A stretch of 64,000 nucleotides of DNA from a virus (Duplodnaviria; Caudoviricetes). Under the pieces are notes generated by a model. That model was given only the letters and a program-made list of their open reading frames with translations, did no database searches and was not told the DNA's origin. Shown one piece after another: positions 1 to 63,723 of this stretch. Each line of letters opens with the position of its first letter. The stretch's first letter is position 1. The DNA is taken from positions 1 to 64,000 of the IMG/VR virus record IMGVR_UViG_3300020048_000009. One strand, 5' to 3'. The position numbers and the translations under genes are program-made.

Positions 1-60
1 TTAAATATATATTTATATAAAAGAAAGAAAAAAGAAATATATAAAGAAAAAAGAAAGAAA

Positions 61-3218: not shown

Positions 3219-3222
3219 ATTT

Positions 3223-3822: not shown

Positions 3823-3881
3823 ATTATTTTTATTTATTCAAAAAGATAATAAATAAAAATAACAATTAAGGATTTTTATCA

Positions 3882-5414: not shown

Positions 5415-5420
5415 AATAAA

Positions 5421-5446
5421 AAACCTAAGAATTTCTTCTTAGGTTT
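5421..5446. terminator. Bidirectional intrinsic terminator
   Basis: AAACCTAAGAA-TTTC-TTCTTAGGTTT hairpin between convergent genes. Confidence 0.8.
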
Positions 5447-5468
5447 AATTTTATATATTTTTGATTCT

Positions 5469-6413: not shown

Positions 6414-6512
6414 TTTAATAGTCCTTTTATTATTCTAATTTATTTTATTTATTGAAAAGTTTATAAATTTATTTATATTTATTCATTATAAAAACAGGTA
6501 TAATTATATAAT

Positions 6513-9730: not shown

Positions 9731-9746
9731 AAGAATAGGAAGACTT

Positions 9747-10283: not shown

Positions 10284-10284
10284 T

Positions 10285-11013: not shown

Positions 11014-11020
11014 TTAATAC

Positions 11021-11788: not shown

Positions 11789-11802
11789 AGTTTATATTTT
11801 TT

Positions 11803-14867: not shown

Positions 14868-16712
14868 ATGAGCCTTAGAACGATGATAAATGCCGTCCGT
14901 AAAAAAACAGAATCAGTTTCCTTAAAAGAATCGCCATATGCAAAACCAACAGGGTATATTGATACAGGGTGTTATGCATTAAATAGAATTGTTTCTGGTG
15001 ATGTATTTCTAGGAATTCCTGAAGGCCGTATTACTACATTTTATGGTGAATCTGGTTGTACTCCCGATACAGCAATAGTAAACGTTCTAGTAAAATATTC
15101 AGATAGAATAAAAAATTATTTAAATCCTCTTCCCGAACGATCAGCTTTAGATTATAATAATTTTGATGCTAAACAAAGTTTACAATGTTTATTAAATATC
15201 GGATTTAGTCAAAAAGAATTGGCCAAAGAAATGGGATTATCCCGTTTATCTATTAGAAGAATAGTTACAAGTAAAACACAAAAAATTAATAAAAATACTC
15301 TTAATAAAATTAATAATTTTATTATTAGAAATTTATATGTGTGTACTATTGCCGGTGTTGAAAAGATAAGAGCTATTACTAAAGACTTTTTAATTAAAAC
15401 ACCTGATGGTTTTCAGGCATCTTCCCAAACTTTCCAAAAGGGACTTAAACATTGTATTAAAATTACAACTGAATATGCATTTATTACAGTTGTTTCTGAT
15501 GACCATGCATTTATTGGAAAAGATAACGAATGGATTTTTGCTGCTAATGTAATAGTTGGAACAGAATTACTAACAGAATTAGGTTTAGATAAAGTAGTTT
15601 CAATAGAAGATGCTGGAATGTTAGAATGTTTTGATATTAGTATTGAACATTCAGAACATAGATATTTTGTTGATGGCTTCGCTGCACACAATTCAGGTAA
15701 ATCAAGAGTTGTAGCACAGATTATTATTAATGCTCTAACAAAAAATAATTACGATTATGTTTTCTACTGTGATTCTGAAGGTGGTGGTTTATATGATTTG
15801 ATTACCAATTCTGGTGTTGATACTGGTAAAATTGAACATGTATTATTACCTAATATTGAAGAGGCTTTAGTTAAAATGCTTAATATTTATGCAAGTATTA
15901 AAGAAGAAATTAAAGAATGTAAAGAAAAAGGAACACCTGCTCCTAAATGTTTAATGGTATTAGATTCTTTTGGTATGCTTGTTTCAAATAAAACATATGA
16001 TGATGCCGTTGAAAAAGGTAAACAGGTTTCAGACATGGGATTAAAAGCCAAACTTAAAAACGACTTTATTAAATCTATGATGATACCTTCTATTATGACT
16101 AATACTGCGCTTATTGTTATTAACCATATTTATGACAATCCTGGCGCAATGTATTCTACTAAAATTAAAGATCAACCAGGTGGTAAAGGTTTACAGTTCG
16201 CTTCACATATTATTGTGCAAACAGCTAAATCATTGGCTAAAGATAAAATTGATGGTTTAGATGAAGGTCAGTCTTACTTTAAGGGTAATGAAATAACTTA
16301 TTTTACCGCTAAAAATCGTTTAGTTAAATTAGGATATGAAGCTAAAATGATGGTCGATCTAAATACCGGAACAAATAAATGGGATGGTCTATTAGATGAG
16401 GCTCGTCGTTTAGGATATATTCAAGGTGGAGCTTCTGGTAGATATTTAGTACCTACATATTCAGAAAAGTCACTTACTATGAAAGAACTTATGGCTACTG
16501 ATGATGCATGGATGTCGTTCTTAACAGCTTTCAATGAACGTAGTAAAAAAGATATGCAATATGGTACTGAAATGGAAGCGGTTTTAGCCAATAAGCCTTT
16601 AGAAGATGAAGCACTTATAGAAGAAATTGATGCTGATGGTTTACTAACAGATGTTGTAACAGTTGTTGAACCAGAAGTACCTATTAAAATTAAAACATCT
16701 AAAAAGGTTTAA
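14868..16712 (+). CDS. uvsX: UvsX/RecA-like recombinase, intein-containing
   Basis: IDTGCYALN..VSG; P-loop GESG|SGKS split by an intein; LDSFG, INHIY, GGKG..FASH. Confidence 0.9.
   Translation: MSLRTMINAVRKKTESVSLKESPYAKPTGYIDTGCYALNRIVSGDVFLGIPEGRITTFYGESGCTPDTAIVNVLVKYSDRIKNYLNPLPERSALDYNNFDAKQSLQCLLNIGFSQKELAKEMGLSRLSIRRIVTSKTQKINKNTLNKINNFIIRNLYVCTIAGVEKIRAITKDFLIKTPDGFQASSQTFQKGLKHCIKITTEYAFITVVSDDHAFIGKDNEWIFAANVIVGTELLTELGLDKVVSIEDAGMLECFDISIEHSEHRYFVDGFAAHNSGKSRVVAQIIINALTKNNYDYVFYCDSEGGGLYDLITNSGVDTGKIEHVLLPNIEEALVKMLNIYASIKEEIKECKEKGTPAPKCLMVLDSFGMLVSNKTYDDAVEKGKQVSDMGLKAKLKNDFIKSMMIPSIMTNTALIVINHIYDNPGAMYSTKIKDQPGGKGLQFASHIIVQTAKSLAKDKIDGLDEGQSYFKGNEITYFTAKNRLVKLGYEAKMMVDLNTGTNKWDGLLDEARRLGYIQGGASGRYLVPTYSEKSLTMKELMATDDAWMSFLTAFNERSKKDMQYGTEMEAVLANKPLEDEALIEEIDADGLLTDVVTVVEPEVPIKIKTSKKV
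15057..15692 (+). mobile_element. 212-aa intein in the UvsX P-loop, no LAGLIDADG endonuclease, contains an XRE-like HTH
   Basis: Starts with Cys (CTPDT), block B VSDDH, block F CFDISI...YFVDG, ends HN followed by Ser. Confidence 0.9.
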
Positions 16713-37228: not shown

Positions 37229-39136
37229 ATGTCAACACAAAATCAAAATAATATCGAAAAACCGGATTTAACTAATGTTTATCCAGGGTATAGAAATATC
37301 TCTTACCATGTTACTAATGGTAAAGGTGAAATTGTATTGGATGGATGGGATAAAGATAAAGTTCCTAAAACTTTTTATTTTCCACATTTAAGCAAAGTTG
37401 TATATGAAACAAAAGAAAAAACAGATACAAAAACATTATTTGATACATACGCACAAACTAGATATTTTAATAATAGTTACGAGCGAAAAAAATGGTTAGC
37501 GTCTATTGATAAAAATATTAATATCATTGAGGCGTTTAAACCTGAACAAGAATTTTTAGTTGATAACTTTTACGATAAAGTTTATGATAATGATTTTAAC
37601 GTTTTAGATTTACGTACACATTTCATAGATATTGAAGTTGCAATAGAAACGGAATTCTGTAAACCTACAGAAGCCAAATATCCTATTAATATTATAACGG
37701 TATATGATACATACTTAAAGAAATATTATAGTTGGGCATTGGATATGTCCATCACTAATACTATTGCAAATAAAAATATAGAATTAAGAAAATTTAATTC
37801 TGAACAGATTATGTTGCGTGATTTTATTGAATGGTTTTCTGTTAATAGACCTGATATTATTTCTGGTTGGAATATTTATTTTTTCGATATGCCGTATTTA
37901 CTTAAAAGAGTTGAGAATGTTTTAGGTAAAACATATTGTGAAAAGTTTTCATCAATTAAGCGTTATTGGTTCGCAGAGAAAAAAGACAAATTCAATAGTG
38001 CATATGTTAATATTCCCGGTGTTTCACAATTAGACTTATTAATATTGTATAGAGATAAGTTTAAAGTTAATCCTTCATTGGATGGCGGCTATAACTTAGA
38101 CAATGTTGCATTTGAAGAATTAGGTGAAAATAAAATAAAATATGAAGGTTCAATGCGTAATTTTTATAAGAATAATTTTCAAAGATTTTGGGAATATAAT
38201 ATAAAAGACGTTGAACTTTGTGTTAAAATTGAAGCCAAAAGATCACTAATTCCTTGTGCTAGACGTATTACTACTCTTGGTTTATGTCAATACGAACAAA
38301 TTTATGGTTCTATTAATTATATTATAGGCTCGGTTTGTATTTATTCTAAAAATCATCATAATAAAATTTTTAGATCTTATACTGATTATGATAATATTGG
38401 TGAAGAGTTTGAGGGTGCATACGTATTCCCAACAATGGCAGCGTTTTATAAAAATGGATGTGCATGTATTGACGTAAACTCACTATATCCCAATACAATG
38501 ATAGCTTTAAATCTATCGCCAGAAACCAAAATTGGGCAACTAATAGATAATCTAAATGGTACTTTTAATATTGTATTAGATGATGGTACTATAAAAATTA
38601 TTACAGCAGAGGTAAGAGCTAAATTATTAGAAACCAAATGTATTTTAAGTAAGAACGATACTTTATTTTATAAGCATTCTGTTAAAAAAGGTATTCTATC
38701 TGGTTGGTGTAAATATTATTTTGATAGACGTAAACATTATCAAAAGTTAGCAAAAGCCGCGGGTAAAAAAATAGAAGAACTTGAAAATCAATTAGTTATT
38801 AAAAAGCAAGAAGGTTCAGACTATAGTGCTATTGATAAAGAATTAGCAGAACAAATTAAATATAAAATGATTTATCATACTACACAGTATGCTATTAAAA
38901 TCATGTTAAACAGTGCATATGGTATGACAGGTACTAAATTTAGTCCTATTTATGATATAAATTTAGCACAAAGTATTACTTTAAATGGACAATTTGTAAA
39001 TAAATCTGTTGCAACATATCTTAAAAAGAAGTTTAATGAAAAATATAAATGTTCTGAAGATTTTGAAGTTACAATTAGCGGTGATACTGACAGTGTAGCA
39101 GGTGATACAATTTTAAATATAAGAATAGGTAAATAA
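37229..39136 (+). CDS. Family-B DNA polymerase, N-terminal part (exonuclease to motif C) ending in an intein N-fragment
   Basis: Exo I DIE, Exo II SGWN...FD..Y, Exo III YNIKDV; motif A DVNSLYP, motif B KIMLNSAYG, motif C GDTD then stop 14 aa later. Confidence 0.9.
   Translation: MSTQNQNNIEKPDLTNVYPGYRNISYHVTNGKGEIVLDGWDKDKVPKTFYFPHLSKVVYETKEKTDTKTLFDTYAQTRYFNNSYERKKWLASIDKNINIIEAFKPEQEFLVDNFYDKVYDNDFNVLDLRTHFIDIEVAIETEFCKPTEAKYPINIITVYDTYLKKYYSWALDMSITNTIANKNIELRKFNSEQIMLRDFIEWFSVNRPDIISGWNIYFFDMPYLLKRVENVLGKTYCEKFSSIKRYWFAEKKDKFNSAYVNIPGVSQLDLLILYRDKFKVNPSLDGGYNLDNVAFEELGENKIKYEGSMRNFYKNNFQRFWEYNIKDVELCVKIEAKRSLIPCARRITTLGLCQYEQIYGSINYIIGSVCIYSKNHHNKIFRSYTDYDNIGEEFEGAYVFPTMAAFYKNGCACIDVNSLYPNTMIALNLSPETKIGQLIDNLNGTFNIVLDDGTIKIITAEVRAKLLETKCILSKNDTLFYKHSVKKGILSGWCKYYFDRRKHYQKLAKAAGKKIEELENQLVIKKQEGSDYSAIDKELAEQIKYKMIYHTTQYAIKIMLNSAYGMTGTKFSPIYDINLAQSITLNGQFVNKSVATYLKKKFNEKYKCSEDFEVTISGDTDSVAGDTILNIRIGK
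39092..39133 (+). mobile_element. Putative split-intein N-fragment (14 aa, SVAGDTILNIRIGK)
   Basis: Follows DTD at the Pol-c intein site and matches intein block A (SVxGDTxI); ORF stops immediately after. Confidence 0.75.
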
Positions 39137-39138
39137 AT

Positions 39139-39348
39139 ATGAATAATGATAAAGCTCAAAAAATTTATACAATAAAAAGCGTTAACAATAAAAGCGTTAT
39201 TGTTTATGTAAATGGCGGTCAATATATAACTACAATAAGGCATGACCATACACAGGCTCTTATAAATGATACAGTTATTACTATAACTACTCCTAGAGGA
39301 AAAACAGTTCAATATTCAGTTTATGGTGCCTTTTTACGACAATTTTAA
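39139..39348 (+). CDS. Hypothetical protein
   Basis: 69 aa ORF directly after polB fragment; no intein or polymerase motifs. Confidence 0.55.
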   Translation: MNNDKAQKIYTIKSVNNKSVIVYVNGGQYITTIRHDHTQALINDTVITITTPRGKTVQYSVYGAFLRQF

Positions 39349-39380
39349 TAAATAAAATAAAACATATAAAAGGTTGAATT

Positions 39381-39725
39381 ATGTCTGAAAGAATGTTTGT
39401 TACTGGATTTACGGGTGTTTATAACACTAATGATAATATATTATCTGCAGTTGTTAATAATATTAAAACTATTGCGGGAAGCGCTATTATCCCCACAAGC
39501 GCTAATATCGGATGTTTAATTAAAGGTTTTTCGGCTGCATCTAGTGGCGATTTTTTATTAAAATTATCAGATTATTCTACTATAAAAGCAACTGTTGATG
39601 ATGGTGTTTATTCTGTAGATGTTGGCTTATATACAGATAATATAAGCGTTCCTATTGATCAATTAACACTATTAACTGGAAATAATCTTACCCTAGATTT
39701 TAATGTATATTATATCCCACTATAA
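39381..39725 (+). CDS. Hypothetical protein
   Basis: Open frame, beta-rich. Confidence 0.55.
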   Translation: MSERMFVTGFTGVYNTNDNILSAVVNNIKTIAGSAIIPTSANIGCLIKGFSAASSGDFLLKLSDYSTIKATVDDGVYSVDVGLYTDNISVPIDQLTLLTGNNLTLDFNVYYIPL

Positions 39726-39731
39726 GATATA

Positions 39732-40217
39732 TTAAAGATTTTTTAAATCCTTATCGGTTATAATTACAAAATTATAACCTTTTTCTTTTGCCATTTTTTT
39801 AGCGGCTGTCCATTTTGACATATTTTTAATATATGCCTGAGATTCTAGGATTTTAGTGGGAGCCATTGTAACGTTAACATCATTTTTTGATTTAACTTCT
39901 ATCCAAACCTTTTGTGTACCATTTTGGGTTTTTATTGTCGCAACAAAATCAATATAATATTTTCGCTTAATGGGTTGTGCTCCACGATCTAATAACAACG
40001 GGCTCTTGTCCCAATATTCTATTGCAAAAGGTTCATAACTCCAATTTATAACATTTTGGTTATTATCTAAATATACCATTGTTTTTAATTCAAGTTTTGA
40101 TTTATAATGAGGTAATGCGTTACTTTTATATTTTTCTTTATTCCTAGGACTATATACACCGTGTAATGATTTATATTTACCTGATTTTTTTAAATTATTT
40201 AATGATACAAACCCCAT
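39732..40217 (-). CDS. Head completion nuclease, T4 gp4/TnsA-like
   Basis: G.Y.P.N..KY, YKSKLE, W.YEP..I.Y, YYIDF, IEVK, KW.AA, F.IIT. Confidence 0.82.
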   Translation of the reverse strand: MGFVSLNNLKKSGKYKSLHGVYSPRNKEKYKSNALPHYKSKLELKTMVYLDNNQNVINWSYEPFAIEYWDKSPLLLDRGAQPIKRKYYIDFVATIKTQNGTQKVWIEVKSKNDVNVTMAPTKILESQAYIKNMSKWTAAKKMAKEKGYNFVIITDKDLKNL

Positions 40218-52470: not shown

Positions 52471-53226
52471 TAATAATATCCTTTGGATTAAGTGTTTTAT
52501 ATTTTATAAAATTTCTACTATTCATATTTCCTCTATACCTATTCAGAAATTTTACATTTGTAACCTCAACATCAAATTTCTTTATCATATCTACAATAAG
52601 TTCTCCATACGTTGCCCCTATATCCATATCTAAATTCTGAAGACCGGTATCCTCTACTATTGTTTTTATGTCATGTATTCCACCATACATAATCCCACTC
52701 TATTATAACCGTCTGATATTTTTGCAAGTGTATTAAAATATTTCTTTATATTTTCTACTTTATAATTTTCATTATATTCAAGTAACTCATCTAATTTATC
52801 ATAATCTATCTCAACTATTTTAAATGGTTCTATATCTACTAATTCTATTGGAACAAGATTAAATGTAGAAACACCTGTTGTATATTTAAGTATATTTTTT
52901 ACAATTAATGCTCTATCAGTTACTTCTACACTTTCAAACTGACTATCTGTCCATATTCTAGCAAAATCTGGCATACCTTCTTCATTAATAAAATAAAAAT
53001 TATCATAACCAAATTTATTTTTGTTCTCCTTATTAATATATAAAAATGCTTCATTTTTATTATTAACATTATATTTTATCATAGAAATATCGGGTCTTTT
53101 TATAAACTTATTAAATATTTCTATAAATTTATTAGAATCAGTAATAATATTAGGTTCTTTTCCTTCGTCTTCTTTTATAAAATTTTCATTTAATAAACGA
53201 CTTCTTAAAGTATCATATCTCTTCAT
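52457..53226 (-). pseudogene. Tandem paralog family member 3, frameshifted (ORFs 52666..53226 and 52457..52690)
   Basis: First ORF has leader and IDYDKLDELL; second has C-terminal KYKTLNPKDI; adding one base at the CCC run 52694-52696 gives a 256-aa family-sized protein. Confidence 0.7.
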
Positions 53227-54077
53227 TATATAAATTCCTTGGGACTAATTACTTTGTATTTTATTAATTGTGGTAATGATATTTTATAATTTTCTATAAC
53301 TAACGTTTCTTTATTATAACATTTTGATTGCTCTACAAATGTATTTTTATAAAAATCTATAAATAAATTAAGTTTTTTAACATATATTCCATTATTTTTA
53401 ATATTTTCTAATAATGGATAAATTTGTTCGTATTTTGTAAAGGCATAATCATATGTACCTTCTTTTGCTATCTGTACTAATCTATTAATATAATTTTTTA
53501 AAGTATATTGAATTAATCTATTTTTTTCAGGAATTAATTCATCTAAATTATCATAATCTATTTCAACCTGTTTAAATTCATCTATATCTTCATTTATAAT
53601 TAATTTGATTTTACTAGTATATGTAACATTCCTTATACCATATATAACACCATATTTAACATAAATATATCCGTCTTCACTTATTTTATATCCCTTAAAG
53701 GTCCCTTTATTTATATTATATGATAATTGTACACTTTCTCCGCCCTCATAATGTCCATCATAGTCATCATCGTTCGGTATATTATTAACTCTATTATAAT
53801 CAACCTTAACTTTATAAGTATCATGTCTATATGAAAAACTCGTTCTATCATTAACAAGTATATACGTATAAACATGATTAGGGGTAGTTTGCTCCTCTAT
53901 AAGGTTTATTAATCTGTTATTCATAAATATATTGCTAAAATAATCTACAAATTTTAAAAAATCAGTATTCCAATTGTCATCAATATTTTCAGAAATCGTA
54001 TTATCTTGTTCTGTAATAACATTTGTTGTATTATTTAATAAACTCTCTTCTAATAGACTGTACCATTTTCTCTTCAT
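53226..54077 (-). CDS. Tandem paralog family member 2
   Basis: MKRKWYSLLEE; IDYDNLDELI; KYKVISPKEFI. Confidence 0.75.
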   Translation of the reverse strand: MKRKWYSLLEESLLNNTTNVITEQDNTISENIDDNWNTDFLKFVDYFSNIFMNNRLINLIEEQTTPNHVYTYILVNDRTSFSYRHDTYKVKVDYNRVNNIPNDDDYDGHYEGGESVQLSYNINKGTFKGYKISEDGYIYVKYGVIYGIRNVTYTSKIKLIINEDIDEFKQVEIDYDNLDELIPEKNRLIQYTLKNYINRLVQIAKEGTYDYAFTKYEQIYPLLENIKNNGIYVKKLNLFIDFYKNTFVEQSKCYNKETLVIENYKISLPQLIKYKVISPKEFI

Positions 54078-54859
54078 TATATAAACTCCTTAGGATCAAC
54101 GCGTTCAAATTTAAAAAACCAAAAAGTATAAGAGTCATCTGTTACTAATAAATATTTATTTTCAAGTCTTAGTGTTCCAGGTAAACGAATACGGTCATAC
54201 CACATTTTAACACTCTGTATATCTATATAATTCTCTTTTAAAATTTCAGAAGCATCATATACTCTATAACCACGAGTAACCATCACTTCTAATTTTTCAT
54301 TATCTACTATATTTTTAAAATACTTTAATACTATTTCCTTATTGGTACTATCAGTATTATCGGGTAACAATGAATCTAAATTATCATAATCAACAGGAAC
54401 ATAATTTAACTTATTCATATTTTGTAAATTTATAATGGTTATTATTATTGGTCTACTTGTTGACATACCAAAACCATCATGTTCTACATAAATATATATC
54501 TGATTATTTTCTATCTTATAATCTTTAAAATTTTCATATGTTATCATTGCGCCTTCCATAAAACTAAGACCACCATTAAACTCTCTTATATGCCATGTCA
54601 TATACCAGCCATCAGCATTATATTTACCCTTTCTATGATACATAGAACGTTTATTATACACTTGAAATTCTGCAATTATTTCATAGTTTTTTTCATTAAT
54701 AGCTAACTTCTGAAATAAAGACATAAAACTATTCCATTTTTTATCTTTTTCATTAGAATCATTATTCTGATCACCTATATCATCAAATATATCATCCTCT
54801 GTAATAAATGATTCTTTTAACAATTTACCCTCTATATCACTAAACCATTTTCTTTTCAT
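54077..54859 (-). CDS. Tandem paralog family member 1
   Basis: MKRKWFSDIEGKLLKES; VDYDNLDSLL; KFERVDPKEFI; start moved to MKRKW. Confidence 0.75.
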   Translation of the reverse strand: MKRKWFSDIEGKLLKESFITEDDIFDDIGDQNNDSNEKDKKWNSFMSLFQKLAINEKNYEIIAEFQVYNKRSMYHRKGKYNADGWYMTWHIREFNGGLSFMEGAMITYENFKDYKIENNQIYIYVEHDGFGMSTSRPIIITIINLQNMNKLNYVPVDYDNLDSLLPDNTDSTNKEIVLKYFKNIVDNEKLEVMVTRGYRVYDASEILKENYIDIQSVKMWYDRIRLPGTLRLENKYLLVTDDSYTFWFFKFERVDPKEFI

Positions 54860-54951
54860 ATTATCACACAAAAGCTTATCAATATTTTTATTTATTTATC
54901 ACTATTTTATAAGCATTACCTGTATAATTAGCATATACATAGGAAAAGATT

Positions 54952-55218
54952 ATGAATAAAACATATCAAGAATTACCAGAAGAACTAAAAATATTAGCAG
55001 ACAATATAGATAAACCCTATAATGAAAATTATAACTATATAAAAGATATGGATAAATTTGTTAAATATGAAAAAGAAGTAAAAGGTTTAACTCATCTGAA
55101 TATAAGTAGTGGTATTTATGGTAATACTTCATCACCGAATCAAATAGCTTATACTTTTATTCAATTATGCTATTCACCAACCTTAATAAAACAAGACTGT
55201 ACAGGAGTATTTTTCTAA
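54952..55218 (+). CDS. Small hypothetical protein
   Basis: AGGA RBS; first of a run of small co-oriented ORFs. Confidence 0.55.
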   Translation: MNKTYQELPEELKILADNIDKPYNENYNYIKDMDKFVKYEKEVKGLTHLNISSGIYGNTSSPNQIAYTFIQLCYSPTLIKQDCTGVFF

Positions 55219-55224
55219 AAGATT

Positions 55225-55497
55225 ATGAAACAAGAAGTAACGCTAATAACAGCAGAAGAAGCCAGACGTAGAGTAAACACACCTCAACAACTACAACTGG
55301 TAGATATTAATAATAAAATCATAGAAGCCTGTGACCAGGATAAGTATTTTATTGAATATAAAGATCCCTATCAAATAGTAATCAATACCCTAAAACAATC
55401 AGGATATGAAGTAATGGAAACCAATCCATTAGCACCTCAAGCTACTATAATAGTATCCTGGAAACCTAAACAAGACTATTCTATGTTTAAACGTTAA
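55225..55497 (+). CDS. Small hypothetical protein
   Basis: ITAEEAR...L..INNKI.EA...G/Y...ISW pattern common in phage small proteins. Confidence 0.6.
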   Translation: MKQEVTLITAEEARRRVNTPQQLQLVDINNKIIEACDQDKYFIEYKDPYQIVINTLKQSGYEVMETNPLAPQATIIVSWKPKQDYSMFKR

Positions 55498-55520
55498 CTT
55501 GTAGTGAAAAATAAAATGTT

Positions 55521-55907
55521 ATGAAATTCTCAGACTTTTCAGATATAGATTATGCTTATATAAAGAATTATATCATCACTCAACATGATATGTTTCAAGA
55601 TTTACAGGCTATGCATGGTATAAAAAATGATGCAGTGGGTATTCTGGGTAAAGCTATTTCACTTCAAGAATTAGAACAACTTAAAGAAACGGATGAAGAA
55701 CTTATTCCCGATCTAGAAATACTCTTTAAAGAAATAATAGAAAATGAAAAACTTGCTCTTATTAAAAGTAAAGAATATTCTAGAGATATAAATCAATCTA
55801 TTGGAGATTTTGAATCAGAATATCAAAGTATTCCTAATACTTTATATGACCAATTCGGAAATGTCTATACTATAAGTAGAGGTTATACTCAAGAAATGGG
55901 ACAATAA
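55521..55907 (+). CDS. Hypothetical protein
   Basis: Open frame. Confidence 0.55.
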   Translation: MKFSDFSDIDYAYIKNYIITQHDMFQDLQAMHGIKNDAVGILGKAISLQELEQLKETDEELIPDLEILFKEIIENEKLALIKSKEYSRDINQSIGDFESEYQSIPNTLYDQFGNVYTISRGYTQEMGQ

Positions 55908-55908
55908 T

Positions 55909-56190
55909 ATGTTCAATATTTCTATATTAAGATTAATACAATTAACTAATACTCCTGATAAAGAAGAGAATTTAGAAGAACCTTGTATAAATTGTGTCGA
56001 TTATACAAAAGGATCGCTTAGTGATAGAGTATGTGATGAATGTCATAAACCTGAATATAAAAAATTTCTAAAGAAAATAGAAAGTAATAAACCTTCTAAA
56101 GATTCAAAATGCCCTATTTGTAATTCAAATTGGTTAGGCTGGGATGAAAATTGTACAACATGTTTAAACTGCGGATATGACTTTAATTAA
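55909..56190 (+). CDS. Small Cys-rich (zinc-finger-like) protein
   Basis: CINC, CDEC, CPIC, CLNCG pairs. Confidence 0.6.
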   Translation: MFNISILRLIQLTNTPDKEENLEEPCINCVDYTKGSLSDRVCDECHKPEYKKFLKKIESNKPSKDSKCPICNSNWLGWDENCTTCLNCGYDFN

Positions 56191-56605
56191 TAAAATGAAT
56201 ACACAATCAATAACACTTCTATATAAAACTGATGTTCCAGGACCCAATGGACGTATATATTCTAAAGATGTCGTAAAAGCCGCATTTGAAGAATATTACA
56301 GTAGAATAAAAAATCAACAATCTTTCGGTAATCTAGGTTTTCGTCTATATTATTCTGTTCTAAATAACCCCGTACAAGATTTAAATAATGCTAGTCATCG
56401 CATAGATGACATAGAAGACGTACCAGAAGGCTTTAATATCACTGCCACATGCCTCCAAAAAACTAAAGCGGGCAAAATACTATCTGAAATGCTGACCAAT
56501 AAGGTAGCAGTGAGATTCGGTTTAAGAGGTATAGGTCGTATAGAAGATAATCACGTAAAAGACTTTAAACTTATTTCAGTAGATATACTATCAGCGGATG
56601 AATAA
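56177..56605 (+). CDS. Prohead-protease (T4 gp21)-like paralog lacking catalytic His and Ser
   Basis: NGRIYS..VV..A...Y, GNLGF (cf. GELNH), ASH.I, T..GKIL, FGLRG.G (cf. GVSSRG), DF.LISVD. Confidence 0.6.
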   Translation: MTLINKMNTQSITLLYKTDVPGPNGRIYSKDVVKAAFEEYYSRIKNQQSFGNLGFRLYYSVLNNPVQDLNNASHRIDDIEDVPEGFNITATCLQKTKAGKILSEMLTNKVAVRFGLRGIGRIEDNHVKDFKLISVDILSADE

Positions 56606-57077
56606 CAATATGATAACTACACCAGAAACAAAAGAACTAAATAAGGCTTGGAGAAAATTCAATAAAACATTTGATCATTCTAAGGATTTTATTCCAGGTA
56701 AAGAAGCGTTTAAAGCAGGATATGAATTCTGCAAAAGCCTTCAGACTCCTAAACCCACAAAGAAAATCTATAAATATATCGTCGTCAATTATAAGTTCGA
56801 TAGTCCTGATTATAACGAAAGTATGGTATTTCAAGATAAAGACAGAAAAGACTGTATAATTGTAAGTAAAGATGAATCTAACTATGTCAAAAGAAATTTC
56901 GATGTAAGATGGATGGCTGAACACCTTAAAGACATTAAGCTATATAATAAAAGAGAAGAAGCACGAGAAGCTGTAAAACTCAATAAAGAAAATGATCCTG
57001 ATATAAAAGAAGTAATCTGGAAAGTCGAAGTAAATGAACATTCTCAATTTATTAACTGGATAAAAAAGACACCCTAA
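56598..57077 (+). CDS. Hypothetical protein
   Basis: Open frame overlapping previous stop. Confidence 0.55.
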   Translation: MNNNMITTPETKELNKAWRKFNKTFDHSKDFIPGKEAFKAGYEFCKSLQTPKPTKKIYKYIVVNYKFDSPDYNESMVFQDKDRKDCIIVSKDESNYVKRNFDVRWMAEHLKDIKLYNKREEAREAVKLNKENDPDIKEVIWKVEVNEHSQFINWIKKTP

Positions 57078-57092
57078 GGATATATTAATATA

Positions 57093-57275
57093 ATGAATAA
57101 CGATATAAAAGAACTTATTAAAACATATGATGATTATTTAGAGTTTTTAAAGAAATCTAATGAAGAACCTTTATCTATTGCATGGGCGCATGGATATAAA
57201 TGTCCTGAAGAACTTATAGTACAAGGTCATTGTTTTAGAGAAAATATTAATAATTTAAAAAAGAGGGTAACATAA
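57093..57275 (+). CDS. Small hypothetical protein
   Basis: 60 aa; AAGGA RBS. Confidence 0.5.
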   Translation: MNNDIKELIKTYDDYLEFLKKSNEEPLSIAWAHGYKCPEELIVQGHCFRENINNLKKRVT

Positions 57276-57276
57276 T

Positions 57277-57459
57277 ATGAAAAATAAAAAATATAATCAT
57301 ACTCAAAGAGATTGTACTCCTTTATGGAATATAGTCGTTAAATGTTCAGTAGATGGTTTTAATAACGGACTTTCAGATGAACAATTAAAAAAATACATTA
57401 CAAAGTTCAGAGATAGACTCGATAAACTTATAGAAAAGAAACTTTCTAAGAAGACCTAA
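57277..57459 (+). CDS. Small hypothetical protein
   Basis: 60 aa; GAGG RBS. Confidence 0.5.
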   Translation: MKNKKYNHTQRDCTPLWNIVVKCSVDGFNNGLSDEQLKKYITKFRDRLDKLIEKKLSKKT

Positions 57460-57636
57460 ATGAAATGTAAAGAATGTGAAAATAAACCAGAACGATTACT
57501 TTCATTAAAGGGTGATGGTTGGTGTGAAGTACATAAAATGAAATTCTTTTTCTCAGAAAGAAATAATCCCTGTCCAATATGTGCAAGAGAGAATAATCTT
57601 TGTGATAGATGTGGAAAAGAATTAAAGGAAAAATAA
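57460..57636 (+). CDS. Small Cys-rich protein (58 aa, not in the ORF track)
   Basis: MKCKEC...WCEVH...CPIC...CDRCG; ATG abuts previous TAA. Confidence 0.55.
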   Translation: MKCKECENKPERLLSLKGDGWCEVHKMKFFFSERNNPCPICARENNLCDRCGKELKEK

Positions 57637-57706
57637 AGTTCTAAGAAAACAAAAGAAAACCTATGGTTTTTGAAAAGGTCAAAAAGGCCCCCGTGATTGG
57701 CCCTTT

Positions 57707-57855
57707 TGGATACAACAGCCTATATACAGATACAATCACATATACGCAGATACAACCCCTATATATCAGATACAGTATGCAGTATATCAGATACAGTCTA
57801 CATACAGCAGATACATATGATACGTATCAGATACAGCTATACAGGCTGCAGATAC
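57707..57855 (+). repeat. Phased array of eight CAGATACA-type repeats, period 20-21 bp
   Basis: Copies start at 57707 (TGGATACA), 57727, 57747, 57767, 57788, 57808, 57828, 57849 (CAGATACG). Confidence 0.85.
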
Positions 57856-57970
57856 GCTGTATGAATACAGGGTGGGCCATCCAGGATCAATATTATAGAA
57901 AATAGCGCTGCAGTGTTTTAAAAGAACGAGTATAATTATATTATAAAAATATATACAGGAGATAATTGAT

Positions 57971-58249
57971 ATGTCATATAGTATTAAGCCGCAAGGAGAT
58001 AGGTTGTTATTGAAGATGGATGTTACAGCTGAACGTGTTGTGTGCGGCGTGATCTTACCGGATCAGGCGTGTGGCGACTTGCTGCGGCGTGGTGTGATAG
58101 TTAGTGTGGGTACAGGCTGCGCCTCATCCTGGAGTGCCGGGACGCGTGTACTGATTGGCAAGGAGACAGGCACACCAGTTAAGATGGGCGACGTGCAGTA
58201 TGTCCTTATACCGGCGGCAGACATCCTAGCGGAGATAACAGATGATTAA
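57971..58249 (+). CDS. groES: Co-chaperonin GroES-like (divergent)
   Basis: IKP.GDRLL, G.ILPD, G.IV.VG.G, G..V, DILA; upstream of groEL. Confidence 0.8.
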   Translation: MSYSIKPQGDRLLLKMDVTAERVVCGVILPDQACGDLLRRGVIVSVGTGCASSWSAGTRVLIGKETGTPVKMGDVQYVLIPAADILAEITDD

Positions 58250-58487
58250 TTTCTTAGATAATATTGTACTGTTTATATTCGATTCCGGTTTAATACTGTT
58301 TAGCTTTATAGTATTATGGTTACTAGCAGCAGTATATGGAGCAGCGATAGTATTGACACTGTTTGCATATACCAGGAAGCTGTACAGGAGTTGGAAGTAT
58401 GTGTCGAATGTGTTTATAGACAGTGTGGTTAATTTTCAATACTGGACTGAAATGGACTTTTTAAAAGATAGAGACAGAGAAGAATAA
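58242..58487 (+). CDS. Small membrane protein between groES and groEL
   Basis: Hydrophobic stretch of ~35 aa; start overlaps groES stop. Confidence 0.5.
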   Translation: MINFLDNIVLFIFDSGLILFSFIVLWLLAAVYGAAIVLTLFAYTRKLYRSWKYVSNVFIDSVVNFQYWTEMDFLKDRDREE

Positions 58488-58504
58488 AAGGAGTAGAAAT
58501 AATA

Positions 58505-60145
58505 ATGAGCAATAAGAAGCAGATAGTGTTTGATAAAGATGTACGGGAAAAGATACTGAAGGGTATTACTATCCTGGCAAAGAGTGTGGGTTCTACGTTA
58601 GGACCGTCAGGTAAGTGTGTGGCTATCCAGAATCAGTACGGATCACATACGATCACCAAGGACGGCGTGACAGTGGCTAAATCGATCAGCGTCGAGGATC
58701 CGTTTGAGGATCTAGGGATTCAGCTTATTAAAGAGGTGGCGTCTCAGACTGCGAATGTGGCAGGTGACGGTACGACTACTGCGACCATCCTGGTTGAAGC
58801 GATCTATAAGGAAGGACTCAAGTATCTTACTGCGGAGTATGATGCGCAGCAGCTTAAGCGTGAGATTGACGCAGCGGTTACATTTGTTCTAGGGAAAGTT
58901 AAAGAGCAGTCGCAGCCAGTGACGACATCAGCGGCGATTGAACAGGTGGCTACTATCTCTGCGAACGGTGACAAGGAGATCGGTAAGATGCTGGCTGAGG
59001 CCTTTGAGAAGGTAGGCCCTGATGGAATGGTAACAGTAGAACCTGGCGACAAGGCGGAGACCTATTTGAACCTGGTGACAGGTATGCAGTTCAACCGTGG
59101 TTATACATCGCCTTATTTCGTGACCGACGTGGACAGTATGACCTGTACCTATGAGCGTGCGGCAGTGTTGCTGTACGATAAGAAGATCTCTAATGTTAAT
59201 GAAATCCTGCCAGTGCTGCAGTACGCGGCCAAGCAGAAGGTGCCGCTCATCCTTATTGCAGAGGATATAGAGGGTGAAGCATTAAGTACACTGGTCGTGA
59301 ATCGCATACGCGGCAACATTGCAGTGTGCGGCATCAAGGCACCGGAGTACGGACAGCAGCGCAAATATGCTTTAGAAGATCTAGCAAAACTATTAGGCTG
59401 CAAGGTGATCAGTGAGGATACCGGGCAGAAGCTGGAGAACGTCACTGATGCTATGTATTTAGGTGTCGCTGACAAAATCATTGTTACCCGGGACAGTACG
59501 ACTATTATTAAGAAAACCCCAGAAGAAGGCTTCCAGGAATATGTTGCAGCGCTGCGTGAACAGGTTAAGCATGCGACGTCAGACTATGAAGTCATGAAGC
59601 TGCAGGGAAGAATCGCTAAACTGGTTGGCGGCATCGGTGTTATTAAAGTAGGCGCAGTAACAGAGGCTGCCATGAAGGAGAAGAAGGACCGGGTAGACGA
59701 CGCGTTCCATGCGACTAAAGCTGCTATCCAGGAAGGTGTTGTACCTGGCGGCGGTATAGCGTTGTTAAACATAGTCCACATGATTTCTACGGAGTTCGGA
59801 ACAGGTGGACGTATAGTTCAGAAGGCTATCGCTGCACCTATCCAGAAGATGCTGTCGAATGCAGGATTGGACCCAGCTATCTATATCAACCGTCTAGAAG
59901 TATTACAGGACGCTGCACAGGCTAACGGTACCTGGAACGTTGAAGGCTATAACATCCTTACCCGTACGTATGTTGATATGTTCGCTGCAGGCATTGTTGA
60001 TCCTGCTAAGGTTACCAGAACAGCGCTGGAGAACGCGGCAAGCATCGCAGGCTTGTTACTTACTACAGACTGTATGATAGTTGATATGCCCGACGACAGG
60101 CCTCAGTTGGTGATGCCAAATATGGGCGGCGGCGGAATGATGTAA
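58505..60145 (+). CDS. groEL: Chaperonin GroEL
   Basis: TLGP.G, ITKDGVTVAK, AGDGTTTAT, GMQFNRGY.SPYF, RVDDA..AT.AA..EG.VPGGG, DPAKVTR.AL.NA.S, GGM tail. Confidence 0.97.
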   Translation: MSNKKQIVFDKDVREKILKGITILAKSVGSTLGPSGKCVAIQNQYGSHTITKDGVTVAKSISVEDPFEDLGIQLIKEVASQTANVAGDGTTTATILVEAIYKEGLKYLTAEYDAQQLKREIDAAVTFVLGKVKEQSQPVTTSAAIEQVATISANGDKEIGKMLAEAFEKVGPDGMVTVEPGDKAETYLNLVTGMQFNRGYTSPYFVTDVDSMTCTYERAAVLLYDKKISNVNEILPVLQYAAKQKVPLILIAEDIEGEALSTLVVNRIRGNIAVCGIKAPEYGQQRKYALEDLAKLLGCKVISEDTGQKLENVTDAMYLGVADKIIVTRDSTTIIKKTPEEGFQEYVAALREQVKHATSDYEVMKLQGRIAKLVGGIGVIKVGAVTEAAMKEKKDRVDDAFHATKAAIQEGVVPGGGIALLNIVHMISTEFGTGGRIVQKAIAAPIQKMLSNAGLDPAIYINRLEVLQDAAQANGTWNVEGYNILTRTYVDMFAAGIVDPAKVTRTALENAASIAGLLLTTDCMIVDMPDDRPQLVMPNMGGGGMM

Positions 60146-60209
60146 GCTGCAGCTAAATGTAGGTGTACAAATTATATAGTCTTCTAGGAGATTATGTAAC
60201 GTAAAAACG

Positions 60210-60245
60210 AAGGCCTCTCATACCGTAATTGATATGAGAGGCCTT
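60210..60245. terminator. Terminator between groEL and the convergent gene
   Basis: AAGGCCTCTCATA...TATGAGAGGCCTT 13-bp stem. Confidence 0.8.
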
Positions 60246-60269
60246 TAATATATATTCTTGCAGCTTTAT

Positions 60270-60656
60270 TTAAAGTTCAACAATCTTCGCGTCCTTAACA
60301 TATTTGCAATAAAGGCTTGCATAGCCCCAATTAATGTTCTTGCTCTTTTGACGCTCGAGGATCTCACTAATCCGAAAAGCTTTAAGGGTTTGCCAAACAG
60401 CACCGACTGAGCCATATCCCTCATTAGGACGACCCTTAGTGTGCTTTGTCATATCCTTGATTTGTTCTTTGGTCAAGGCTCGCATGCAATCACCCTTCTT
60501 AGTAAAGCCCGATGAAGGTGACATGATGATAACCGAATCAAAGTAGTTGACGCCACAAACCCCTTCAGCAAATTGATTTCCACCCCAATGCAAAAGAGCA
60601 TATTGCTCCAAGGCTTCGGGATGTTCTTTTACGAAGGTTTCTAATCTATGAAACAT
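60270..60656 (-). CDS. Hypothetical (probably early) protein
   Basis: AAGGAG RBS and repeated promoter upstream. Confidence 0.65.
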   Translation of the reverse strand: MFHRLETFVKEHPEALEQYALLHWGGNQFAEGVCGVNYFDSVIIMSPSSGFTKKGDCMRALTKEQIKDMTKHTKGRPNEGYGSVGAVWQTLKAFRISEILERQKSKNINWGYASLYCKYVKDAKIVEL

Positions 60657-60681
60657 TTGATGCTCCTTGTTGTGTGATTGA

Positions 60682-60719
60682 ATAGATATATGATGTCACA
60701 TATCCTTAGAACAATACAC
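60682..60719 (-). promoter_or_regulatory. Repeated promoter-like motif GTGTA-N23-ATATATCTAT, copy A
   Basis: Same motif and spacing at 61221-61258 (-) and 61403-61440 (+), each just upstream of a gene. Confidence 0.7.
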
Positions 60720-60727
60720 TTAAAAGG

Positions 60728-60907
60728 CTAATGCTTTTTCTTTTTTTCTTCCTCTTCGTTATTGGTGTATGTCCAATTAGTACTCTTACATTTTGGACAT
60801 ACATAATCAAAATACTCAAACAAAGGCGATAATCCGAATCGTGGCAATTTTTCGTTTTTATCGTATTTATTTCCACATGCATTGCATATATGAAACCAAT
60901 GTAGCAT
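60728..60907 (-). CDS. Small zinc-ribbon protein (59 aa, not in the ORF track)
   Basis: CNACG...CPKCKS; MLHWFH...KKKKH. Confidence 0.55.
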   Translation of the reverse strand: MLHWFHICNACGNKYDKNEKLPRFGLSPLFEYFDYVCPKCKSTNWTYTNNEEEEKKKKH

Positions 60908-61002
60908 AAAAGTTTTTCCTATTTCTTCTTTTGTGGTTTACATAGATGGTAGGCATACCAACACCAATAAATCCAGAAAAATGTCATTGCTGTTGTCATT
61001 TT

Positions 61003-61197
61003 CTATTTTTGTTCGACATATTCCATGGTGTACACATAAGCGAAATATGCATAGAGCAATGCTGCTCCGATTTCAAGGATTGATAACAATGGACGTTCGA
61101 AGATGTTGATTCCGAAACGAAAACCATACGTGATCATAAGATCGATTGAGGCGAGAACGATGATGGCATTTAAAGACTTCTTAAAGAATTTTTTCAT
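61003..61197 (-). CDS. Small two-helix membrane protein
   Basis: Two hydrophobic segments; AAGGA RBS and promoter copy B upstream. Confidence 0.6.
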   Translation of the reverse strand: MKKFFKKSLNAIIVLASIDLMITYGFRFGINIFERPLLSILEIGAALLYAYFAYVYTMEYVEQK

Positions 61198-61220
61198 GGT
61201 GTTCCTTGTTGCTTGATTGA

Positions 61221-61258
61221 ATAGATATATAATGCCAAAAATCTTTAGAACAATACAC
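61221..61258 (-). promoter_or_regulatory. Repeated promoter-like motif, copy B
   Basis: Reverse complement reads GTGTATTGTTCTAAAGATTTTTGGCATTATATATCTAT. Confidence 0.7.
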
Positions 61259-61402
61259 TTAAAAACTAATGGATTTTTATTTTATTTTCTTTGAAATTCC
61301 TGGTGAATTGTGGTGTACAAAGATTTATAGAAATGATATTCGCGTGCGCATTCCTATATAAGATATACATTGAAAAAAGATTCAGATAAAATAAAAATCT
61401 CA

Positions 61403-61440
61403 GTGTATGTTTCTCTTCGGATTGTATAATATATATCTAT
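61403..61440 (+). promoter_or_regulatory. Repeated promoter-like motif, copy C
   Basis: GTGTATGTTTCTCTTCGGATTGTATAATATATATCTAT. Confidence 0.65.
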
Positions 61441-61491
61441 CTTAAATGCACAACGCATTAAGAACAAACCAAAAAGAAAGAGAGTTCCAAT

Positions 61492-61803
61492 ATGAAACGT
61501 GATGCAAATGGTCGCTTCCTCCCCAAGTCCGCAACAGTCGCTCCGGTCGCCAAGAAAGTTGTCGCCCCCGTCGAGCAGAAGCCTGTTGAAACCGATCCCG
61601 TCAAGATGATCAAGCCCCTCGCGAAGTTGCTGGTCGGCGTGGTCGGCACGGGTGTCGCAACGGCCGTCGAGAAAGAGCTCTTCGCCAAGTATCGCACCTC
61701 GGGTGTGTATCAGGCCAACAAGGCCAACCTCTGCGCGCTCTATACCCAACTGGGTATGACTGAGATGGCCGAGCTGGTCGCGGCTGACATGATCGGCGAG
61801 TAA
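61492..61803 (+). CDS. Hypothetical protein with strongly GC-rich codon usage
   Basis: About 60% GC in spot counts, GTC/GCC/AAG codons; promoter copy C upstream, terminator downstream. Confidence 0.75.
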   Translation: MKRDANGRFLPKSATVAPVAKKVVAPVEQKPVETDPVKMIKPLAKLLVGVVGTGVATAVEKELFAKYRTSGVYQANKANLCALYTQLGMTEMAELVAADMIGE

Positions 61804-61819
61804 GTCAAGAACAAATCGA

Positions 61820-61845
61820 GGGGGTGAAAATCCCCCAAGTTTTTT
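61820..61845 (+). terminator. Intrinsic terminator
   Basis: GGGGG-TGAAAAT-CCCCC then AAG and T-run. Confidence 0.7.
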
Positions 61846-61936
61846 GTTTTGCTTTGTTGTATCTTAATGAGATATGGGTAAGACGTTTATGAAGTGGAAT
61901 TACTAGTCTCCATGGATTAAGCATTCAGAGATAGAT

Positions 61937-62007
61937 TGAGGGAACTAGTGTTAATGGTTAGCACAAGGGCCTTTGTCCCTTAGAGCGGTTCGAATCCGTA
62001 CCCTTAG
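61937..62007 (+). ncRNA. Degenerate tRNA-like element
   Basis: D-arm TAGTGTTAATGGTTAGCAC, anticodon-like stem AAGGG/CCCTT with loop CCTTTGT, T-arm GCGG-TTCGAAT-CCGT; acceptor out of register, variable region short. Confidence 0.55.
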
Positions 62008-62062
62008 AACAGATCTTAAGCTATAGCTTAACAGGTGAAATCCTCTGTATCTTACCTTGATT

Positions 62063-62090
62063 CGGGACATGTTAAAGTGTCCCGTTTCTT
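62063..62090 (+). terminator. Intrinsic terminator after tRNA-like region
   Basis: CGGGACA...TGTCCCG followed by TTTCTT. Confidence 0.7.
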
Positions 62091-62136
62091 TTATTTAGTG
62101 TTAAGGTTCTAGGAATTTGTACACCGGATAAAAGAA

Positions 62137-62165
62137 AAACCTGATAACTATTAATTATCAGGTTT
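62137..62165. terminator. Terminator hairpin downstream of 62191..63723
   Basis: AAACCTGATAA-N7-TTATCAGGTTT. Confidence 0.7.
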
Positions 62166-62190
62166 CATTGTAACGTATCTTGTTGAGATA

Positions 62191-63723
62191 TTACTCACCA
62201 GGAGCGACAGGCGTACCAAAGTCTTTAGCTGTAGGGGGTAGTTTAGGTTGAGCATTCGCTTCTCTATCCCATTGAGCCTTCATTGATTTAGCACCGGTCT
62301 CAGACATATCTTCCCAATACCAATAACGTGTTTCAGGTTTCATCTTTGACTTGTAATCAAACATTTTACCAGACTTAGTTGTAGGTTGAATTTTGAAGTT
62401 GATGTTTGTGATGTATTTGATTTGGTCATCAGGCGATAACATTTCAAACTCTGCAACAGCAATCGGCTTACCTTGAGCGATCTTGATCTCTAATGTCTTA
62501 GCACCAGTATTAGGAATAGAAGCTTGGCTTGTAGATTGTATACCTGTTTGAAGGTTCGCTGTGCGTCTGGCTGAATCATTATCAGTTAACCAACCTTTAG
62601 CACCGACTCTATCTGTAGGAAGAACATCTGGACCTGCTTCACCCAACTTCTGATATTTCTTATCGGCGGCTTTTATTTGATTTATACCTTTAGTGATATC
62701 ATCTGGAGTGATTTTATTTTTTATTTTATTATACATCTCCATTATTTTGTCTTTGCCGCCCATATTATACCAGTCAGTAATACTGTCTAAACTATAATAA
62801 GTAGCCAATGCTGCCACAATTTGTACTGAGACACTTGCTAAAACCCCTGCGAGTGCTCCAGCTAAAATGGCGCTTTCTTTCACTGGTTCCTTCTTGAGTT
62901 CACGTTTTGATTTATATTCGTTAACAAACGTACAGAATTCTTTGATATCCTTCTTCATCCAGTAGCTGATATCTTTTTCTTTACCAGTTAATTTATGACG
63001 AATCTCTTTCACGAATTTGTCACAGCAAGCTTTGTCAGCAGCAGTTTTACATTTCTTATCTTTGAATACTGCAATGGTCGTAACAGGTTTCTTTTCTGCT
63101 TCTTCCATTTCTTTAGAAAGATCATATGTTTTATAAGATTCTTCTATAGCGTTACCAGTATAAGGATCTTCATTACTTAGGTCAGGAGCATCCTCGATAT
63201 TCTCGAAACAGTCTGTAATGAATTCTGCGATCGCTGTAACCTCATCAATGCCGAATTCCTCGCAGCAGTCATCATCTTCTGCGCCGCAAGTAACTAAAAC
63301 AACATTCTCCTTAATCAGTTCTATTTCTGCCTTCTGTGTAATAGGATCGCCTGCTTTAATTACTTCTAGGATATTCTCATCTTCATTGAATTCAATTGAA
63401 TAATCAAACATGCCTTCTAATTTAGCTCTAAGGTCTGTACACCAACAAATGTCATCTGAATCAATATCTCCTATATCGTTTTCAACAATTTCATCGTCGC
63501 CAATATCATCTGTTGAAATAATAGGTTCAGCTTTGACGCTGCTAGTAGTCGCCATTCCATCTTCTTTAATGACTTTACCTGTAGGCGCTGCTTTAGTTAC
63601 TTTAGGTTTTGAAACAGCAAATACCGGTTTCCCGGCATTTGGTTTCTGGTTGCAGCATGCTTTACTTTCAGAAATAACCTGTAAGTAAGCATCTGTTATT
63701 TTATCTTCATGCTTTATATACAT
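62191..63723 (-). CDS. Hypothetical, probably internal-head/scaffold-like protein with DIxxW module
   Basis: Repeated (I/V)xE sites (ISES, IKED, IVEN, IEES, VKES), acidic blocks, DISYWMKK...F..FV..YKS; AGGAG RBS. Confidence 0.65.
   Translation of the reverse strand: MYIKHEDKITDAYLQVISESKACCNQKPNAGKPVFAVSKPKVTKAAPTGKVIKEDGMATTSSVKAEPIISTDDIGDDEIVENDIGDIDSDDICWCTDLRAKLEGMFDYSIEFNEDENILEVIKAGDPITQKAEIELIKENVVLVTCGAEDDDCCEEFGIDEVTAIAEFITDCFENIEDAPDLSNEDPYTGNAIEESYKTYDLSKEMEEAEKKPVTTIAVFKDKKCKTAADKACCDKFVKEIRHKLTGKEKDISYWMKKDIKEFCTFVNEYKSKRELKKEPVKESAILAGALAGVLASVSVQIVAALATYYSLDSITDWYNMGGKDKIMEMYNKIKNKITPDDITKGINQIKAADKKYQKLGEAGPDVLPTDRVGAKGWLTDNDSARRTANLQTGIQSTSQASIPNTGAKTLEIKIAQGKPIAVAEFEMLSPDDQIKYITNINFKIQPTTKSGKMFDYKSKMKPETRYWYWEDMSETGAKSMKAQWDREANAQPKLPPTAKDFGTPVAPGE

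Follow-up and report, generated by a model that had tools for sequence, protein, structure and literature searches.

A probable naturally split PolB16-type intein in the family-B DNA polymerase of a T4-like freshwater jumbo phage

The first 64,000 nt of the IMG/VR virus record IMGVR_UViG_3300020048_000009 (hereafter the window) carry a gene for a family-B DNA polymerase (PolB) that stops 14 residues beyond catalytic motif C. We conclude that these residues very probably are the N-terminal fragment (IntN) of a naturally, atypically split class-1 intein of the PolB16 type, located in the only replicative polymerase that can be detected in this phage, and that the C-terminal fragment (IntC) is supplied, together with the missing palm and thumb, by a second gene of the same genome located 86,144 nt away. 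We demonstrate the anatomy of the two pieces, their homology to a characterized intein, their shared genome, the conservation of their catalytic residues, the purifying selection acting on them, and the collinearity of the joined product. Homology to PolB16 and conservation of the catalytic residues suggest that protein trans-splicing takes place in this phage.

A polymerase gene that ends after fourteen intein codons

The open reading frame (ORF) at 37229..39136 (+) was read directly and encodes a protein of 635 residues, whose tail, EVTISGDTD/SVAGDTILNIRIGK (the slash marks the insertion point), is followed by a TAA codon. Residues 1-621 (37229..39091, +) constitute the polymerase part, or N-extein, with a 3'-5' exonuclease domain, palm motifs A and B, the fingers, and motif C up to GDTD. 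The Pfam domains DNA_pol_B_exo1 (PF03104) and DNA_pol_B (PF00136) were both identified in this N-half. Of the 856 positions in the profile of the DNA polymerase family phrog_262, it matches 24-582, and its alignment with RB69 gp43 (E 1.6e-34) ends at about chain residue 632, which corresponds to motif C. Because both alignments end there, approximately 280 residues of palm and thumb are missing, and the N-half is that of a T4-type (gp43-type) family-B polymerase lacking this portion. The last 14 codons, SVAGDTILNIRIGK (39092..39133, +), encode IntN, in which Ser1 is the predicted N-terminal nucleophile and which would form beta-strands 1-2 of the HINT fold. The gene is closed by TAA (39134..39136, +), with a second in-frame stop (TGA) 3 nt further on.

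In principle, the stop might be an error of sequencing or assembly, or a contiguous intein might be restored by programmed frameshifting or by reading through into the next ORF, and the arrangement of the locus gives such ideas some basis: a 69-residue ORF (39139..39348, +) starts only 2 nt past the polymerase stop, in a different frame, and its TIRH motif is superficially intein-like. We therefore give this ORF only in order to exclude read-through or frameshifting; it lies outside intein and polymerase. The stop was checked by placing contigs from public sequencing runs on positions 38600-39800 of the window. The source run reproduced this sequence exactly; a 20.3-kb contig from a run of a different study (X2) spanned the entire interval with 24 substitutions and 0 indels, none of the differences falling between 38930 and 39185; and a small contig from a third run (X7) over 38984-39154 was identical and included the stop. 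As independent assemblies agree without an indel, the stop is not an assembly error. It is genuine, and misassembly and frameshift are excluded, which settles the read check across 39090-39140 that the first-pass annotation of this DNA had called for. Apart from the two in-frame stops, the 69-residue ORF itself argues against a restored intein. It shows no significant similarity to IntC or PolB (best E value against IntC about 0.7, in a database of 19 sequences), and its counterpart in the relative contig L007 is a separate 65-residue ORF placed 16 nt from the polymerase stop. We consider an artefact or a restored contiguous intein extremely improbable, and the idea that the 69-residue ORF is a decayed part of the intein was rejected. 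The ORF encodes a small protein that is conserved in its own right, with a ratio of nonsynonymous to synonymous substitution rates (dN/dS) of 0.03 against L007 at about 80% nucleotide identity, and it has no match in Pfam or PHROG.

The tail also has the features of an intein start, as the first-pass annotation had proposed. Following the same SGDTD N-extein, SVAGDTILNIRIGK is in register with the IntN of PolB16 OarG, SVHGKTHVFIRSIKN (taken from the supplementary information of PMC10189870), with 6/14 residues identical, and it is also in register with the start of contiguous mini-inteins inserted at the same site in the homologous polymerases P0104 and P0118. A search of the sequences in the Protein Data Bank (PDB) with a 29-residue tail query gave no match, the query being too short. 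The insertion point lies within PolB motif C, between GDTD and Ser (ISGDTD/S). Intein-less homologues read GDTDSQF at this place; full-length relatives of 880-940 residues continue in this way, and a few bear a contiguous insertion there.

This truncation is not a chance event, since 83 of the 120 best N-half homologues end alike, with DTD, a serine or threonine, a short tail, and a stop. These at least 83 N-halves come from metagenomes and carry IntNs of 11-37 residues, residue 1 being serine in 78/83 and threonine in 5/83. The 72 distinct tails follow the pattern S1-x-x-G-[DSE]-[TS]-x-[LIV]-x-[IV]-[KR].

Two further observations concern the family. Five split N-halves (P0037, P0069, P0093, P0094, and P0116) read GDTD/T, which implies a Thr1 nucleophile. 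The shortest IntNs have 11 residues in six homologues (e.g., SFWGDTKIMLV) and 12 residues in 13, P0079 and others being among these homologues. To our knowledge, IntNs of 11-12 residues are shorter than any characterized natural IntN. The expectation that the 14-residue IntN would be among the shortest thus holds with respect to the characterized record of 15 residues, which it undercuts by one, but uncharacterized homologues with 11-13 residues are shorter still.

A partner gene on an adjoining piece of the same genome

Neither a PolB C-half nor a Hint domain was found in the 64-kb window or in the whole record to which it belongs (G000; 211,678 bp, linear, CheckV 84%, the window being its first 64 kb), in line with the earlier remark that nothing of the kind is encoded in the approximately 25 kb downstream. 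G000 was searched with the Pfam models PF00136 and PF14890, with phrog_262 and phrog_1918, and with a regular expression for the KxY motif. Further tblastn queries were the C-termini of HTVC008M and S-CAM22, 31 closer full-length homologues, and 17 proteins composed of IntC and a C-half. The partner is missing from G000 because this record covers the genome incompletely.

When the C-terminal 284 residues of an intein-less relative were searched against a database, proteins of 432-482 residues were obtained, in which an IntC of about 150 residues (...SRH...TTDDHTC...VYDLEV..H.YYAN.ILVHN) is followed by SQF and the PolB C-terminus. One of them, P0131, shares its sample of origin with P0002, an 86%-identical N-half, and the contig of P0002 (L007) shows synteny with the window at 70-83% nucleotide identity. 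A T4-type portal gene follows immediately downstream of the gene for P0131. Genes for portal, NrdD, and the major capsid protein gp23 were not found in G000, and G000 therefore lacks that entire region. A scan of IMG/VR with P0131 identified the record IMGVR_UViG_3300020048_000142 (G001; 62,427 bp, CheckV 26%), which contains an 85%-identical gene of 439 codons, followed by the portal gene. This C-half gene, encoding IntC and the C-extein, occupies positions 12211-13530 of that record (10001-11320 of the extracted locus L009), on the minus strand relative to the window. Measured leftwards from window position 1, its distance is about 48.9-50.2 kb, which places it 86,144 nt from the N-half gene, on the opposite strand. 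The first-pass annotation had supposed that the C-half would be encoded by a distant gene and had suggested searching the full genome for an ORF consisting of a Hint fragment, a serine, and the PolB thumb. This ORF was found on G001, with block B, block F, and HN present. An IntC ORF had been presumed to exist somewhere in the complete genome; on this point G000, a fragment without portal, major capsid protein, or C-half, would by itself have given a false negative, and the C-half stands on the adjoining G001.

Several lines of evidence join the two records. The Logan contig L020 of the source run consists of positions 52961-62427 of G001 (its last 9,467 nt), 18 nt, and positions 1-12102 of G000, all at 100% identity; G001 therefore adjoins the start of the window with a gap of 18 nt. 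A contig of 274,159 bp in an ENA assembly contains an identical C-half at 12.2-13.5 kb, and G001, the 18 nt, and G000 add up to 274,123 bp. Two contigs of the 0.2-1 Mb class encode the exact N-half protein. Word shares were 1.00 in the source run for both the polymerase region and the C-half region of G001, and 0.48 and 0.70, respectively, in a second study, indicating co-occurrence; the low word shares seen in runs X3-X13 were left out of account with regard to habitat. Essential genes are complementary, with portal and gp23 only in G001 and terminase only in G000, and the tetranucleotide correlation between the two pieces is 0.988. Both genes belong to one phage genome of about 274 kb, that of a T4-like freshwater (lake-water) jumbo phage, in which the N-half sits among replication and repair genes and the C-half closes a block of nucleotide-metabolism genes on the other strand, adjacent to the portal and capsid module. 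This single phage genome is stored in IMG/VR as two viral records, of 211,678 bp and 62,427 bp. As a caution, the "absence" of a partner from a record that CheckV rates as 84% complete was misleading.

The ends of the assemblies bear a repeated two-gene cassette, composed of a 129-residue ORF (three copies, about 70-77% nucleotide identity) and a 266-residue ORF (two copies), beside large tail-fibre-like genes. It is located at G000 210937-211678 and G001 87-1276, with a third partial copy at G000 203258-203644. Circular closure was probably prevented because both long assemblies end in this cassette. An end overlap suggested by a 77% match between the last 620 nt of G000 and the start of G001 was rejected, as this match corresponds to the repeated cassette, the true junction being at the other ends. 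Short matches of 81-97 nt represent tail-fibre repeats rather than tRNAs, of which aragorn found none.

With both pieces in hand, the possibility that the N-half is a pseudogene remnant, decaying or truncated, while another enzyme replicates the genome, can be assessed. It would account for a G000 devoid of a C-half, a Hint domain, and a second polymerase, but the adjoining piece of this genome does encode the C-half, and the same architecture is kept in dozens of lineages. Both halves are under strong purifying selection: dN/dS is 0.078 for the N-extein against the relative L007 (about 80% nucleotide identity), and comparison with the relative pair L007/L008 gives 0.16 for IntC and 0.065 for the C-extein. 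Neither PolA nor a second PolB was found in either genome piece, and for this reason the split gene is the only detectable replicative polymerase and must be functional. We regard gene decay as a most improbable explanation.

Anatomy of the pair and its predicted splicing product

The C-half of 439 residues comprises an IntC of 159 residues, ending in ILVHN, and a C-extein of 280 residues that starts at Ser+1, with 279 residues of palm and thumb beyond it. IntC contains the NX motif SRH at positions 53-55, block B (TDDH) as T84-D-D-H87, block F, and H158-N159, followed by S160. It aligns with the PolB16 chain 8cpn_A (E 1.3e-17, about 30% identity) and more weakly with the Aes123 PolB1 intein 9HTH (E 2.8e-6). 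A structural model of the C-half, built with AlphaFold2 without the two IntN strands, has a predicted local distance difference test (pLDDT) value of 87.7. It superimposes on 8CPN with a template modelling (TM) score of 0.78 (normalized to target length) and a root-mean-square deviation of 2.3 Å over 158 columns, and on 9HTH with a TM score of 0.69; the remainder of the model matches the RB69/T4 gp43 fold.

The two intein fragments fit together. IntN and IntC align without gap or overlap to the contiguous same-site inteins of 164-166 residues in P0104 and P0118, and the break falls in the same column as in other pairs, after beta-strand 2, leaving 14 residues in IntN and 159 in IntC. The same holds for the exteins, the C-extein covering positions 581-837 of phrog_262, which is exactly the part that the N-half lacks. 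Joining N-extein residues 1-621 in silico to the C-extein gave a product of 901 residues with the junction ISGDTD/SQFINI. This product aligns with intein-less homologues as a single high-scoring segment pair, with 47% identity over 896 residues in the case of P0009 and no gap at the junction. From its sequence, the spliced product would be a collinear T4 gp43-type PolB with the exonuclease, motifs A, B, and C, KxY, and the thumb.

Conservation among the homologues covers the residues on which the reaction would depend. In 60 aligned C-halves, H55 of the NX motif, T84, D86, and H87 of block B, and L156, H158, N159, and S160 are invariant, as are Y139, D140, E142, V143, and H148 of block F and the polymerase KxY residues K242/Y244. 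At least 70 C-halves occur in metagenomes, among which HN/S is found in 70/70 and the NX histidine and the TxxH of block B in 69/70 each. With regard to cysteines, IntN has none, and in this respect the first-pass description of the fragment as cysteine-free was correct; this does not extend to IntC, which has four non-catalytic cysteines (Cys14, 23, 79, and 89). The pair is thus predicted to be cysteine-independent at its junctions, but is not cysteine-less. A cysteine-free IntC was found in 0/70 members of the family.

We propose the following mechanism. Gene 1 would provide the polymerase N-half with the 14-residue IntN, and gene 2 the 159-residue IntC with Ser+1 and the palm and thumb. The IntN beta-hairpin would dock into IntC and complete the HINT fold, after which Ser1 would undergo an N-O acyl shift and the N-extein would be transesterified onto Ser+1. 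Cyclization of Asn159, followed by an O-N shift, would release a polymerase of 901 residues in which the native motif C, GDTD-SQF, is restored.

Split polymerases formed by gp43A and gp43B exist in some Aeromonas T4-like phages, and a two-subunit polymerase working without splicing, in which the intein pieces serve only as a non-covalent dimerization module for both halves, deserves consideration. Tight binding of split inteins precedes their reaction, the polymerase halves could in principle complement each other, and the spliced product is one that we infer rather than observe. Nevertheless, all residues that are needed for the chemistry only have been kept, with Ser or Thr at position 1 in 83/83 N-halves and the C-half residues at the frequencies given above. 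Moreover, the active site would probably suffer if a HINT domain of 173 residues remained within motif C, beside the catalytic aspartates, and the homologue PolB16 does splice (PMC10189870). We judge a polymerase of two unspliced subunits to be quite unlikely, though less so than an artefact or a decaying gene.

Some points weigh against a polymerase assembled by trans-splicing. Splicing in this phage is deduced from homology and residue conservation. PolB16 itself is slow to splice and gives C-cleavage side products (PMC10189870, PMC13014065), which bears on the efficiency to be expected here. The dN/dS of IntN is 0.70, a value that comes from 14 codons alone and is uninformative. Finally, the genome of 274 kb is not closed, and a small stretch missing from the assemblies might conceivably hold a further polymerase gene. 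Taking these points into account, we still consider a naturally split PolB16-type intein to be very likely.

Genomic arrangement, neighbouring genes, and comparison with known inteins

The position of the polymerase gene in related genomes suggests how the arrangement arose. In the contig L011, an intein-less polB encoding 886 residues lies directly upstream of the genes for portal, protease, scaffold, and major capsid protein. At the same position in L010 (5183-9613), an N-half of 617 residues with a 13-residue IntN, SCAYSTLIDVIF, a 408-residue ORF, a gene for IntC and C-half, and the portal gene follow each other in a fractured layout. In the phage of the window, the C-half has stayed at this ancestral place upstream of the portal gene, the N-half being 86 kb off on the other strand. 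A single clade thus documents a series from an intein-less polB beside the portal gene, through a contiguous mini-intein and a fractured gene, to halves that are 86 kb apart.

The free-standing 408-residue ORF of L010 belongs to phrog_22677 and has a weak REase_MTES_1575 match at its C-terminus, making it a candidate free-standing homing endonuclease. In the window, a TnsA-fold ORF at 39732-40217 was considered as a gene-fracturing homing endonuclease and rejected, as it matches the T4 gp4-like head-completion (head-closure) family phrog_218 (E 2.6e-29).

The locus provides a complete natural pair with a 14-residue IntN, and its family provides candidates for better tools for semisynthetic protein labelling. 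The biology will hardly surprise a specialist, and the resource will probably be valued. Two more speculative ideas, both of which we regard as unlikely, are that the halves belong to differently regulated transcription units and, separately, that the IntNs of 11-13 residues with Ser1 (possibly Thr1) in this clade splice better than PolB16. If the former were true, the meeting of the two precursors would control, after translation, how much active polymerase there is or when it appears; if the latter were true, these IntNs would fill the field's stated need for a natural cysteine-independent split intein that is both fast and short. A scan for sigma-70 promoters near the N-half found 32 sites, compared to 22.8 expected, and is uninformative in DNA with 30% GC.

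Other observations were made in the window. A UvsX/RecA-like recombinase of 614 residues (14868-16712, +), which surfaced through a weak tblastn match to the block F/G region of IntC, has its P-loop interrupted by a contiguous mini-intein (about 15057-15692). This intein reads YGESG/C...AAHN/SGKS, with Cys1 and Ser+1, and in place of an endonuclease domain it carries a Cro/C1-type helix-turn-helix (Pfam HTH_3, residues 110-148). The region at about 23200-28900 is syntenic with L007:1-5631, where an NAD-dependent DNA ligase, a NUDIX hydrolase, and NAMPT/NAPRTase are annotated, a set for NAD+ salvage. Ankyrin-repeat proteins are encoded at 2103-3218 (-) and at about 5.5-6.4 kb (-).

The closest known system is PolB16 OarG, from a sheep-gut metagenome (Chem Sci 2023, PMC10189870; PDB 8CPN and 8CPO). 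It lies in a putative PolB and has Ser1 and Ser+1, an IntN of 15 residues, and an IntC of 168 residues; the synthetic precursor reads SGDTD-SVHGKTHVFIRSIKN, and its trans-splicing has been demonstrated in E. coli as well as in vitro and semisynthetically (PMC10189870). The phage pair shares with it the T4-type PolB host, the SGDTD/S insertion site, the split after beta-strand 2, Ser1 and Ser+1, the NX [RK]H motif, block B TxxH, and the terminal HN. By these features the pair has the intein allele and the split site of PolB16 OarG, and is thus a new natural relative of it; the first-pass annotation had already pointed to the atypically split PolB16 with an IntN of about 15 residues. The pair differs from PolB16 in its lengths, with 14 vs 15 residues in IntN (6/14 identical) and 159 vs 168 in IntC, and in the four non-catalytic cysteines of its IntC, PolB16 having two. 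It also differs in that the whole genomic context has been established, the two halves lying on opposite strands at a distance of 86 kb, and its splicing is predicted by analogy.

Aes123 PolB1 (as well as the CL and CLm inteins; PDB 9HTH) is likewise a cysteine-independent mini-intein with Ser1 and Ser+1 in a T4-like phage PolB. It is contiguous in nature and was artificially split (PMC13014065), and it is more distant from the intein of the window than PolB16. In fractured genes, as described by Dassa et al. (2009, NAR 37:2560) according to the citation in PMC13014065, the split-intein halves are parted by a free-standing homing-endonuclease gene. The phage of the window departs from this layout, its halves being not adjacent but 86,144 nt apart, with no endonuclease gene between them. 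VidaL is a natural split intein that is split at the same structural position, after beta-strand 2 (PMC13014065). The phage pair resembles VidaL, AceL-TerL, and GOS-TerL in being naturally and atypically split with a short IntN, whereas these three are cysteine-dependent, reside in other host proteins, represent different alleles, and have IntNs of 16-37 residues.

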